DNA of 5,166 bases from a virus (Duplodnaviria > Heunggongvirae > Uroviricota > Caudoviricetes), in the IMG/VR virus record IMGVR_UViG_2548876865_000013, positions 1-5,166 of that record. One strand, written 5' to 3'. Positions 1-5,166 of the stretch are shown in pieces. Positions within the stretch are counted from its first letter, which is position 1. The number at the start of each line of letters is the position of its first letter. Made by a program: the position numbers.

Positions 1-3000
1 TTCACAAAGGTTTTCAGGCCGTTGGGATCTTTCAGTGCATCCAGCCAGTCATAGACTATCTGTACCCAGGTGGTGAACGGACTGTACGCCGTCCAGATAT
101 GGAAAGTGATGGAGCGCGGCGGCGGAATTTCATCACCCCGGGCGCTGAAAAACATCAGGCCGTCACGGGTCCACATGCCCGTGTTTTCACAGATCCACCG
201 CCCGTTGCTCTGGTCAGGCTCAGACTGATGGATCACGCAGCCATGATGTTCACAGAGGTAGAAAACGCTTTCGGGGCTGTCCTTCTCCCATTTAAGGCCA
301 AAAGGCGTGGATTCATCGCCAAATTTCAGATACTGCTCCTCCCCACAGTGTGGGCAGGGCACATAAAAACGCATGAAATGCGCCGACTCGTTGGCCGCTT
401 TTTCGATCTGGCAGGTGCCTTTGATTTTAGGCGTCGAGCCGCGAATGGATTTTGGCCATACAGAGCCCTCAATACGTTTATCCCCCAGCAGGGTTGGCGA
501 TCCCTCTTTTTCAACATCCGGTTCGAACGAGGAAAGTTCGTCATAGCAGACCACATCCACGGATTTTTCACGGTAGTTTTTGGCGGCAGCGCCGCCCAGG
601 CACCAGAACCCCACACGTGACGTAAACCTTTTTAATGTCAGCGTGTTATCCCTGTGCTTACGTCCCAGCCAGGGGGAAAGGATTTTCAGACAGGGAACAT
701 CCCGTAATGTCGACTCCACATGAGACTTCATAAAATCTTCAGCGGCAGAATCCGTAGGCTGAAACAGAAGACTGTTACGATTTTTATGCTCAATAAAGTA
801 ACCAATAACGCCCATCAGCATTTTGGTGTAACCGACACGAGCTGATTTTATAAGATTAATCGTGCGGATCCGGTCATTACCCATGCAGTTCATTATTGCC
901 ACCTGAAACGGCAACGTCTTCCACCGCCCGGCAAGATAAGAAGACTCCGGAGGTAAATAATAATTTTGATCAGCCCATTCAACGGTGGTGACAGGCAGTG
1001 GGCGTAAAAGACCGCGAAGTGCCACGCTACAAACAACAGCAAAGTTATTTAGCTGCTTCTCTGAGGTATTCATCCAGCATCTCCGGTAACTTCTCTGCCG
1101 TTGATGCGCATCGGTTTGCCGCCTTTGCTATATCGGTTTTCAGGAAATCAAGCATGGCGGGCGTCAGTGCCGGAAACTGTCTCTGCATGGACAATGGAAT
1201 GGAGTCAAGAATGGCAGAGATCTCCTGCGCCAGTCTTCCCAGAGCAAAAAGGCAAAACCCTGTATCAATGACCTGTCCACTGTCACGGGCATTTTTCAGT
1301 TCCTGTGCATCTGCCTGTGCCTTCGTCAGTCGGTAGCGTTCGTAATCAATGGTGCCGGGCTGAAGGTCAGATTCACTGGCAGCCCTCAAGTCTTCGACCT
1401 CTTTACGGAGTTTTTCATTTTCAATATCAGCTTCGCGCTGCGCATACCATTCGATCGCCTTCGCAGAATCAAAGATGACCTCAACGCCTTTTCCTCCGCC
1501 AGATATCTGAGGGAGCCCCTGAGTTTGCCAGCGATCAATCGTGCGTATATCGACATTAAAAATTTCAGCAAGCTTCTTTTTATTAACATTCATTCAGCAA
1601 TTCCTTATCAAAAATCAGTTACGACATGAAATGCCAAAAAAACAGATTTTTCATCATTCTGATGTCGTTTCTTTCTTGATAGTTATTTCTTTAAAAACAA
1701 TACGTTAACAACAAGAAGAACTGACATGCTTTTTCCCGGAAAATTTTCATAAATAGCGAAAACGCGCGAGGTCGCCGCCCCGTAACCGGTCGGATCGCCG
1801 GAAAGGACCCACAAAATAATAATTATCATCTACATGTCACAACGTGCGTGTACGCCATCAAACCACGTCAAATAATCAATTATGACGCAGGTATCGTATT
1901 AATTGATCTGCATCAAATTAACGTAAAAGTAACTTCAGATAATACAAATCAGCAACACTGAATATGGGGCAACATTATGTCATCAAAGAACAGAACCCGC
2001 AGAACAACAACCCGCAATATCCGTTTCCCCAATCACATGATTGAACAGATCAACAGCGCCCTTGAGCATAAAGGGTCCGGTAACTTTTCAGCATGGGTCA
2101 TTGAAGCCTGCAGAAGAAGACTTGCGGCTGAGACTTCTGACGCGAATAACAAACAGAGTTAAGTAAAATTGCCTTTAAAGACAAACGCTGATACCCGATA
2201 CATGAGGTTTGTCATTCTATCCCCCGACAGCACGGATGCGCCCTCTGACTGTGGTTTTTACAAAAAAACTAATAGATTATTTCTTATGACGAAGATAACT
2301 CACTCAAAAAAAAAGCGACGAGAAGATCAGTATCAGCGCACAATAAGCGCCAATGCGTGATAACAGAGGGTAACCGTATTTATCTGCATTACAGGCAATA
2401 AATAATACAATCACACCAGCAATCGTCAGCATTAAACCCATTTGTCGTTCCCCGAACACACTCAACTTATCTCTGGTATTACAGTCCTTTTTATTATCAA
2501 TATGTTAAAAGTAAAATAAACTGATATTCAATTATCTGAATACAAAAATGTGCTGAAACTCAACGAATCCTTTCCCGTATTCTCAGGTAAACATCGTAAA
2601 TATCCGGTTTCTTCCACCATCGCACCGGACCAGCGACCATGAGGGGACAACGCCGCGCTCCGTTAACGCGGTAAACCCCGGTGTGTATCGTTTTTGATTA
2701 TCCCCACACACTCGCGCAGAGGAGTCTCCCTGTCGGGCTGCGGTCTCTGTTAATGCGGGAATACGGCGACAATACCGCGCCATGGATAATAAGGTCGCTC
2801 AACACACTGGCTGTAATGCAGCCGATACCATGCGGCATTTAGCGGCATTCATCGTACACTCAACGGTTAGCTCTTCATTCGTGGCATTCACCTGAAAGGT
2901 CCTGGAGTGTAATTGCGTACATTTACCACTGAACGAACCTTCAACAAGAACACGACCACGCTGCAAAATACGGAACGGAATTGTTCCCTGAAAAGGCTTT

Positions 3001-5166
3001 ACGGTTACCAGTAATTTCTTCATGTATCCTCCGGATAATAAAAAGCCAGCTTAGTGCACTGAGTGCGGATATATTCCTGCGCCCCTTCCAGCTGCTTCTG
3101 CATTGTCATCAACCGTTCTCTGAGGATGAAATAATCCCGTTCAGCGGTGTCTGCCAGTCGGGGGCCGGTTGCATTATCCACGCGGGCGGTGCCGGTGGAT
3201 TCACGCACGGTACCGGAGCAGGTGGCGTTGATCCGCAGGCGCTTACGACCAGCGGCAACATCAGCGCGCAGAGTTTCATTTTCAGCTCTCGCATCGGCTA
3301 ACTCCTTTGTGTATTTTTCATCCAGCGCAGCAACATCACGCTGGCGCTGCTGCATGTCAGTAATGGTTGCGTTTGCCAGCTCCAGCTCGCTGGCTTTTTT
3401 ATCGCGCTGCGCTTTGTAGGTGATGGCATTATCGCGGTAATGGTCTGTTGCCAGCCACAGCGCACCACAGGCCACCAGCAGGACAATAATCACGCCACAC
3501 AGTGCCCGGTTCATATCGTTGTCACCCCACCAGCCCTGCCGAATTCAACGTCATCCATGCCATAGAAAGAAGAAGAGCAATCAGCGTTGCTGAAAATGAA
3601 ATGCAGACAATGACCCAGAGGATTTCCCCCAGCATTATGAGTTTGCGTGACATGATTACCTCTTAATCCCCGTTTACGATTTCAACGCAATGACCAGTTT
3701 TGCCAGCCCATACAGCATCGGAGACACAGCAATACCAACAGCCACCCACTTAATAGCAAAAGCCAGCGCTCTGCTGATGTCATCAGTCACTGTCACCCCA
3801 GCAGCCCCGACGAAGACAACATCACCCAGGCGAGGGACAGAAAAAGAGCAACCAGCATTAGTGAAAATGAAATACCTACAATCACGCACAGGACCTTTGC
3901 CGGCGTTATGAGTTTGTCTGACATAGCTACCCCTTAATTGCCACAATTAACTGGGATACTACCCATAAAAAAGGGATGCTCCAGACCAGCAAAAATTTCC
4001 AGTTTGGTAATTGACTAATCATGAGTCGCAACTCCCTAATCAGTTTGCTAAAATCAATCAAGGCAGCCTCCCATAGCTTACTGCCATAAAAACAAAACCC
4101 CGCTTGCTGCCAACAAACGGGGTTTTTACTTTTATTCACTTACATTTTGCCAGTTCGCAGGATTTCGTGTTATCCGTCCACGTGAGCATATCTCATTTTT
4201 CAGCAAAATATTCTGCTTACCTGTCGATCCCCCAACACGCCAGCGCACTCTCCTGGTCGCGACGGGATACCTGACCGTAACAGTTGTTTGAGCGAATACG
4301 GCAGTCTCTGCCACCGTCCTTAATCCACCAGCGAATCGCCTCACACGCTCCCCTGCGATCACCTGCATTAATTCGTTTATAAAACGTCGACGGAAAACAC
4401 TTACCGGGGCCAATGTTGTAAGGACAGAATGACGCGATCCCCGCTTTCTGGGGTTCCGTCAGTGGCACTTTGATGTTTTTCTCCACCCATGCCAGCGCCT
4501 TATCACGTTCAATGGCGTTAACCTGGTCGCATTTCTCCTTCGACAACTTCATGCCCGGGACGACAGGTTTACTATCCACCAGAATGGCACCGCGACAGAT
4601 GGTCCAGATACCCGCGCCATCACGGTATGCTGTTGTGTGGTTGCCTTCCTTTTCATCCAGAAACTGGTCAAGGATTTCAGGTGCAGAAGCCCCTGCGGCA
4701 ATCAGCGCCAGAACGGCAGCCGACAGGCCGTATCTGATTTTGGTGTTCATGGATATTTATCAGGATTTATCGGTTTCTGAGCCCTGGATATGTTTATCAG
4801 TTCCAGCCTGTTGCCTCAGGCTGCTAACAGGTCAATACAATCATGAGGATTATTTATGGACAATAACACTATTTCTCTACAGGAGTTGCTCGACAGCATT
4901 TCCAGGCTTCGGGAAGACGTGAACACCCTTACCGTCGCCTTCTCATATCTGGCATTCTCAATTCCAAGGGAACAGATGCAATCAACGCTGGCATCAATCC
5001 AGTTTGAATCATGCAATCCCAAATGGTCTCAGGAACAACAAGACTCTTTCAGGCGGCTTGCTGTATTACTGGATGAAAAATATGCTGGTAAAATTACCAT
5101 TTCGGCGGACTCTTCAGAGAACCCGTAATTATTCCCGGTAGTTTTCCTCTGTAGGTTATCAACACA

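Follow-up and report, generated by a model that had tools for sequence, protein, structure and literature searches.

A 74-codon PHROG 2571 gene in the slot behind the Rz spanin gene of lambdoid phages

What kind of gene occupies the position directly after the spanin gene Rz, where phage lambda carries bor? The question is raised by a stretch of 5,166 nucleotides (nt), positions 1 to 5,166 of the IMG/VR virus record IMGVR_UViG_2548876865_000013 (Caudoviricetes), which we call the window. A 74-codon open reading frame (ORF) lies on its minus strand at 2799-3023; we refer to it as gene A, and to the partner that follows it in relatives as gene B. Homologous loci compared with the window carry the labels L001 to L033, and family proteins are given P numbers (P00xx). 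Several explanations may account for a gene in this position: a spurious ORF, an accessory of the lysis machinery, a moron that serves the lysogen, one half of a two-gene module, or cargo. According to our analysis, gene A is probably promoterless cargo on the late strand, transcribed late and encoding a soluble beta-sandwich protein that does not belong to the lysis machinery. The reality of the gene, the fold class of its product, its distribution, the architecture of its slot and its independence from lysis type are observations of this study.

Gene A as a protein-coding gene

The length of gene A is in itself uninformative, as the window holds 59 ORFs of at least 30 amino acids (aa). Its product (MKKLLVTVKPF...LQPVC; 74 aa, 8.2 kDa), encoded on the late-gene strand, has a pI of 9.69, with 10 Lys plus Arg against 4 Asp plus Glu, and contains four cysteines (Cys35, Cys56, Cys63 and Cys74). 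No transmembrane (TM) segment or signal peptide is apparent (peak 19-residue Kyte-Doolittle hydropathy, 0.76), there is no lipobox, and Pfam and PHROG scans returned no lysis-category match. An Rfam scan gave no match within or near the gene. A prior reading made from the sequence alone, referred to here as the sequence-only reading, had described this ORF after Rz as encoding a basic protein with four Cys and neither a TM segment nor a signal peptide; this description is accurate, as are all its other descriptive statements on gene A.

The sequence-only reading had also taken the ORF for a real gene, a view that several lines of evidence bear out. Among full-length E. coli and Salmonella copies with 65-97% aa identity, the pairwise ratio of nonsynonymous to synonymous substitution rates (dN/dS; Nei-Gojobori) is 0.14-0.33 in the gene A frame, compared with 0.62-3.87 in four off-frames. 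The antisense frame mimics the signal but is interrupted by stops; it is the expected exception, because it shares third-codon positions with the gene A frame. Length differences among copies consist exclusively of in-frame insertions or deletions. An AlphaFold2 model built from a 23-sequence alignment reaches a mean predicted local distance difference test score of 90.5 and a predicted template modelling score of 0.76, and shows seven strands packed into a compact beta-sandwich, plus one short helix. RefSeq lists the homologs as coding sequences for hypothetical proteins (WP_000735655.1 and relatives). Finally, gene A is carried by 1244 of 5426 complete E. coli genomes (~23%, or about a quarter), including prophages of O157:H7 and other Shiga toxin-producing E. 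coli. It is also present in 26 sequenced phages, among them H-19B and several Stx1 (Stx1a), Stx2a and Stx2c converting phages. Gene A is thus a genuine protein-coding gene under purifying selection whose product folds confidently in prediction.

The product matches the PHROG family phrog_2571 at 2.8e-28 (99.9 bits), with residues 1-73 aligned to positions 100-172 of a profile of 291. Judged by this match, gene A is a direct member of PHROG 2571, a catalogued family of Enterobacterales prophages annotated as function unknown. The confinement of the match to the middle of the profile, together with the fact that several phage records leave the ORF unannotated, could be read as the mark of a spurious ORF or a decaying pseudogene fragment. 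The offset is no sign of truncation, however, because the profile rests on the architecture of a 280-aa E. fergusonii protein (P0074, WP_137501600), which covers the entire profile and in which the domain is internal. This protein has a coiled-coil in front of the gene A-type domain and an alpha/beta region at its C-terminus; the window protein consists of the domain alone. Nearly every other member stands alone at 71-82 aa, and distant ones (P0085, P0079 and P0071; 71-81 aa) match the same positions 100-172 at 1e-17 to 1e-19. With dN/dS, the frame controls and the confident fold all opposing it as well, a spurious or decaying ORF is hardly credible, and we dropped the truncated-pseudogene reading since the long profile stems from P0074.

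The slot and the junction with Rz

The slot that holds gene A is bounded by two conserved features. Its left boundary is the 3' end of Rz (3020..3514, minus strand), which encodes a 164-aa i-spanin (Pfam Phage_lysis, 6.7e-51; phrog_13, 1.5e-74) and contains the gene for the Rz1 o-spanin lipoprotein (3109..3294, minus strand; Pfam Rz1, 5.3e-21; lipobox LVVSAC). Its right boundary is a conserved non-coding element of ~176 nt (2603..2778, minus strand), in which no frame is conserved. The element occurs in 398 phage records at 77-98% identity, including VT2-Sakai, the EDL933 Stx phage, P13374 and the lambda-like phage 1H12. In VT2-Sakai the slot is empty, with 23 nt from the Rz probe to the element. 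This distance is 268-278 nt in window-type slots, which hold gene A alone, and 1217 nt in L005, where an A-like gene is found with others; it is larger in L014 and L022, which carry gene A plus other genes. In VT2phi_272 and 1H12 the slot is filled by bor, on the opposite strand. The sequence-only reading had placed the ORF in the slot where lambda carries bor. This is literally correct, since VT2-Sakai, VT2phi_272, 1H12 and the window have the same flanks.

Lambda bor and gene A share the interval from the Rz 3' end to the ~176-nt element and are alike non-essential cargo in lambdoid phages; yet they have no sequence or fold relationship. bor is an independent unit on the opposite strand that encodes an outer-membrane lipoprotein, whereas gene A lies on the late strand, appears to be promoterless and encodes a protein predicted to be soluble and cytoplasmic. 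The window itself contains no Bor-like lipoprotein, as had been noted before: a tblastn search with Bor gave nothing significant, and the sole ORF with a true lipobox is Rz1. Gene A was rejected as a Bor-like gene for want of a tblastn match and a hydrophobic N-terminus, and for its late-strand orientation.

Gene A starts with the ATG at 3023-3021 and Rz stops with the TGA at 3022-3020, so that the two codons overlap in an ATGA at 3020..3023 (minus strand), and a Shine-Dalgarno (SD) sequence, GGAGGA, is located at 3027..3032 (minus strand), 3 nt 5' of the ATG. Both had been reported by the sequence-only reading, which saw in them a translational coupling of gene A with the lysis genes. We compared the Rz/gene A junction across 10 loci. 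In L001, L008, L005 and L014, Rz ends after 153-155 aa at a TAG located 23 nt 5' of the gene A ATG. In the window, L002, L007, L003 and L004, this TAG is replaced by CTG or CAG (TAG to CTG at 3049-3047 of the window), and Rz has 164 aa. Having lost the canonical TAG, Rz reads nine codons further (LAFYYPEDT, 3023..3049, minus strand), to the TGA of the ATGA, and the overlap is found only in the lineage that lacks the canonical stop. The overlap therefore stands, while its interpretation as a conserved coupling device does not: as far as these sequences tell, ATGA is a derived by-product of the lost Rz stop in one lineage. The extension adds to the periplasmic C-terminus of Rz, the end that contacts Rz1, and the variant is common (L002, L003, L004 and L007).

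The features conserved at the junction are the close spacing to Rz and the SD. The 23 nt before the gene A ATG are homologous in every E. coli and Salmonella copy. In L006, whose upstream gene is unrelated, merely ~18 nt containing the SD are homologous 5' of gene A. Since only these SD-bearing nt remain, gene A and its SD seem to move as a cassette, in which 18-23 nt of upstream sequence travel along. Translation in the window lineage would then occur by re-initiation at the Rz stop, and in other lineages from the SD of gene A itself, 23 nt 3' of the stop of Rz.

A consensus scan, which is indirect evidence, detected no sigma70-like site on the minus strand at 3023-3600, a region covering ~580 nt 5' of gene A, and no terminator-like site 3' of gene A beyond 2799. 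Moreover, the 0-23 nt between Rz and gene A leave no space for a promoter. Given the lack of an own promoter, the tight spacing to Rz and the conserved SD, the economical assumption is that gene A is expressed from the late transcript. Gene A would be expressed at a high level in the late lytic phase from the Q-dependent transcript, which, once antiterminated by Q, would cover it along with the lysis and morphogenesis genes. If late expression is true, the protein would be abundant upon induction of the Shiga toxin prophages and phages that carry the gene.

This arrangement bears on the possibility that gene A is a bor-like moron, expressed in the lysogen and benefiting the host through phage exclusion or a fitness trait. 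A classical moron, in the sense of Juhala and Hendrix, has its own promoter and terminator, which allow expression from the prophage. Gene A does sit in bor's slot, it is retained intact in the E. coli genomes counted above, and candidate defence cargo (PDC-S15) occupies the same slot elsewhere. Yet its strand is the late one, its 5' side shows no promoter-like site, the gap between Rz and the ATG is too short to hold one, and no terminator-like site follows, in contrast to the independent transcription unit of bor. We regard a lysogen-expressed moron as unlikely. The sequence-only reading had called the post-Rz position a hotspot for morons and accessory genes; the accessory slot is upheld, whereas the classical moron is not, as promoter and terminator are absent from the scan. 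Gene A is better described as putative promoterless late-strand cargo, which would have been inserted into a recombination slot bordered by the Rz 3' end on one side and the ~176-nt element on the other. Defined in this way, by the Rz 3' end, the cargo and the element, the slot offers a simple handle for cataloguing cargo in lambdoid late operons. Its cargo in other phages is bor, a candidate defence gene (PDC-S15) or a gene resembling Acb2/Tad1.

The element that closes the slot may serve as a linker for recombination, or else as an RNA element. It gives no thermodynamic folding signal (minimum free energy z ~0). One long-range helix is kept through 8 one-sided changes compatible with G-U pairing, with an overall covariation of about zero. 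An ORF that overlaps the element (2583-2783, minus strand; 66 aa) was rejected as a gene: its ATG stems from a 1-nt insertion unique to the window, and its frame contains stops in L003, L005, L007 and L014. This ORF matches phrog_6954, 'Rz-like spanin', at 2.6e-14, and its equivalent in VT2phi_272 is annotated as a spanin. A non-coding element with an ATG made by an insertion explains these misleading "Rz-like spanin" labels in PHROG and RefSeq, and the 'spanin' label on equivalents of 2583-2783 is likely a propagated misannotation.

Genomic context, fold and variation of the family

In most lineages sampled, gene A homologs follow the last lysis gene, whatever the type of lysis cassette. The upstream genes belong to Rz/Rz1 cassettes with signal-anchor-release (SAR) or soluble lysozymes, an M15 peptidase (endolysin) cassette, a set of holin_3_3, DUF2570 and LysC, a combination of holin_8 with GH19, a non-Pfam 175-aa spanin candidate, or the Klebsiella-like cassette of phage mEp237. 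The terminases located 3' of family members vary too, comprising Nu1/gpA, DUF1441/gpA, Terminase_2, Terminase_4/TerL and an HNH-associated type. Two members depart from the usual position: one from Providencia lies between Q and the holin gene, and one from Yersinia lies in an early region, where a Ser/Thr kinase, ParDE and Erf are encoded nearby. The independence from both lysis and terminase type speaks for portable cargo rather than for a gene dedicated to lysis or packaging. On the evidence of these gene neighborhoods, the family is portable cargo and not lysis machinery. Its moves would not be tied to the type of spanin, endolysin or terminase, and gene B would usually accompany it.

The same data speak to whether gene A is a lysis accessory or regulator that modulates spanin, endolysin, holin or the timing of lysis. 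Such a role would agree with its place right after the last lysis gene in most lineages and with the ATGA overlap or 23-nt spacing to Rz. However, the adjoining lysis systems are non-homologous (Rz/Rz1, DUF2570/LysC, M15, GH19, SAR versus soluble lysozymes), and the two exceptional members lie 5' of the holin and far from the lysis genes, respectively. Spanins act in the envelope, but the protein is predicted to be a soluble one of the cytoplasm. In addition, gene A is missing from VT2-Sakai and from lambda-like phages in which the 3' end of Rz is nearly identical. A function in lysis thus seems rather unlikely, and portable cargo remains the preferred reading. Membership of the spanins, holins or antiholins was rejected, there being no TM segment, no lipobox and no lysis-category match. 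Gene A is not related to PA1-LRP, the "lysis-related protein" of a Pantoea phage, whose all-alpha structure includes a hydrophobic segment.

Two neighbors of family members were recorded in passing. An Acb2_Tad1_hairpin gene (Pfam, 3.1e-16) is found directly 3' of a member at L024:863-1147, and, two genes 3' of another, L027:5629-6552 encodes a protein with an FRG domain that matches PDC-S15, a candidate defence family of PADLOC, at 5.8e-32.

An exhaustive hidden Markov model search of 1.84 billion representatives gathered 47 relatives of gene A at 50% identity, and the family comprises 66 clusters at 90% identity. Its hosts are Escherichia, Salmonella, Citrobacter, Yersinia and Providencia. 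PHROG 2571 also includes gp60 of mEp237, a viable phage, where the gene has the same late-operon position as in the window. In an alignment of 21 members with identities down to 26%, the family core consists of F17, Q21, G33-K34 (an SGK turn), Y43-x-V45 and A68, and the window protein has every one of these positions except Y43, which is F. Close relatives have an invariant C35 and a nearly invariant C56; the other two Cys of gene A are not conserved. Distant members have 0-2 Cys, conserve none of the gene A cysteines, and bring the range of pI in the family to 4.8-9.7. Since neither is kept across the family, Cys content and basicity are features of a local clade. The two properties that the sequence-only reading had singled out are therefore present in the window protein without having meaning at the family level. 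A metal-binding or disulphide role and membership of a zinc-ribbon type were rejected, as there is no conserved set of Cys/His ligands.

The sequence-only reading found the protein unrecognisable, and we sought a match to a characterised family in Pfam, NCBIfam, PADLOC, the PDB and fold databases without finding one. Gene A has no match in Pfam or NCBIfam and none in PADLOC at E <=1 (P0085 and P0074, none at E <=0.01); a PDB-sequence profile search yielded only a chance match (E=0.71), and fold searches with the model gave nothing specific. Literature searches by accession, PHROG identifier, peptide and topic returned nothing on the protein. The model was compared with CBM35/36/6 carbohydrate-binding modules (CBM), LecB, a PNGase F domain and a lambda J domain, at 6-17% identity, Z <7 and Foldseek E >=0.26. 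In contrast to small beta-sandwiches of the CBM or lectin kind, it shows no evident conserved motif for binding sugar or Ca. Its similarity to these proteins appears to be at the generic level of a jelly roll, homology not being established.

Variation within gene A is concentrated at its 3' end. The first ~55 codons are conserved (omega ~0.2). The last 19 codons, a variable cassette spanning codons ~56-74 (2799..2858, minus strand), exist in at least two alternative tail forms, plus a form with a 5-aa deletion. Synonymous divergence between the tail forms is saturated, and omega is <1 within and between forms. DNA homology between gene A and L006 breaks at window position 2856, at codon ~56. 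Gene A thus looks like a conserved scaffold with an exchangeable C-terminal surface. A conserved core joined to a recombining C-terminal cassette is the pattern expected for an interaction surface under diversification, which the tail may represent. One family member of 169 aa, P0073 (L025:398-907), has a C-terminal extension ending ...RPGGLIWQAIRR. When compared by eye, this end resembles the C-terminus of mEp237 gp62 (L032:4121-4588; ...RPGGTIWSALSR), the product of a phi80-like gene two positions 3' of the gene A homolog. P0073 may be a Rosetta-stone fusion with a gp62-like region.

Gene B, possible roles and other features of the window

That gene A occupies an accessory hotspot of a known kind and belongs to a family already catalogued is no surprise; a conserved partner gene elsewhere is unexpected. 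Gene B encodes ~68 aa and belongs to PHROG 4280, another family annotated as function unknown. It lies 39-94 nt 3' of gene A. We found the order A-then-B in seven independent contexts: E. coli ECL27829, Salmonella, Citrobacter, Yersinia, a Yokenella-type contig, a Logan contig, and gp60/gp61 of mEp237. Gene B is 63-87% identical between genera and far more conserved than gene A. According to tblastn, it is present in L006, L009-11, L014/15, L019-21, L027/28 and mEp237, with coordinates L014:5265-5471, L006:2688-2903(-), L019:5308-5511, L009:5341-5559, L027:5305-5511 and, for mEp237 gp61, L032:3739-3960. It is absent, with no remnant detected by tblastn, from the window and from L001-L005, L007 and L008. 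Compared with Salmonella L014, the window is missing ~940 bp that include gene B.

The range of gene B extends to Pseudomonas and Halomonadaceae. In Pseudomonas it is found in variable islands among tail genes, beside Imm_superinfect, SocA_Panacea, HigB or NucS. In Pseudomonas prophages and in phage YMC11/02/R656, a converging ORF of ~80 aa abuts the B homolog (L029:5237-5479(-), L033:3191-3439(-)). One of the Pseudomonas ORFs has the A core motif TVSGKCESP..YSRSY, scoring 12.2 bits versus <=5.5 for shuffles; against the gene A family, no score is obtained for the homologous ORF of phage YMC11. As a weak lead, the converging ORF may be a very distant homolog of gene A. The label "DUF2188", attached to gene B in one UniRef name, was rejected because no B member matches Pfam DUF2188; the link of DUF2188 to defence is therefore not transferable to gene B.

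Could gene A be half of an A+B module, toxin-antitoxin-like or sensor-effector, of which the window holds a copy orphaned by the deletion of B? The recurrence of B directly 3' of A in E. coli, Salmonella, Citrobacter, Yersinia, the Yokenella type and mEp237 would fit this model, as would the loss of the ~940 bp relative to L014 and the Pseudomonas B that lies beside a weakly A-like ORF among toxin-antitoxin genes. The window, however, does not carry such a module, as no PHROG 4280 gene is located directly 3' on the same strand. The A-B spacers differ from the tight overlap typical of toxin-antitoxin pairs. Solo A is very common and under purifying selection, which is hard to square with an orphan toxin or partner. 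Neither A nor B matches PADLOC or Pfam, and the A-like match in Pseudomonas amounts to just 12 bits, the YMC11 homolog failing to score. We consider an orphaned module improbable.

As regards what the late-strand cargo might do, a role in conflict between phage and host or between phages is our preferred mechanism, if a speculative and tentative one. Gene A would encode a small binding or inhibitor protein, produced late and acting stoichiometrically in counter-defence or exclusion, in which a conserved core carries an exchangeable C-terminal surface. We prefer this mechanism because of the Acb2_Tad1 and PDC-S15 neighbors, the Pseudomonas islands of gene B, the small size and solubility of the protein and its swappable C-terminus, and also because gene A diverges rapidly relative to gene B. 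In size, solubility and accessory status, gene A is similar to the Acb2/Tad1 sponge family; membership of that family was rejected, since the model is all-beta and there is neither a Pfam match nor any such PDB neighbor.

A bolder and more doubtful form of this proposal is that gene A, ancestrally paired with B, represents a new family of late-expressed conflict proteins, small beta-sandwiches that would bind and neutralise a host immune sensor or effector or a component of a competitor phage. The C-terminal cassette would tune specificity, and the slot would be the lambdoid counterpart of the defence and anti-defence hotspots of P2 and P4. Should A, with or without B, prove to serve in conflict, a class expressed late would join a field in which early genes predominate. 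Otherwise, gene A is one more phage ORFan that is conserved, has a confident fold model and sits in a defined slot.

The remaining features of the window lie on either side of the slot. Downstream of gene A are Nu1 (1045-1593) and the cos region (~1690-1834), which contains the exact reverse complement of the lambda cohesive-end sequence (AGGTCGCCGCCC) at 1769-1780. The cos block is conserved in all Nu1-type loci and lies ~1 kb 3' of gene A on the late strand. Between the slot and cos, a YlcI/YnfO (DUF3950) gene (1977-2162, plus strand) runs antisense to the late transcript. It is kept at that position in most E. coli loci examined, whatever the terminase type. A very hydrophobic ORF of 45-53 aa (MGLMLTIAGVIVLFIAC...; 2304-2441/2465, minus strand) has RefSeq homologs annotated as hypothetical and no family match, and the sole sigma70-like site of the scanned region (2429 to 2402) falls inside it.

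Upstream of Rz, the lysozyme gene is located at 4217-4750. Two paralogous 43-aa single-TM peptides (3522-3653 and 3793-3924, minus strand; phrog_4906), identical at 25 of 43 positions, and a 70-aa ORF (3927-4139, minus strand; phrog_6632) sit between the endolysin gene and Rz. In related loci, this interval holds one copy of the peptide gene, other small ORFs or an antirepressor gene.

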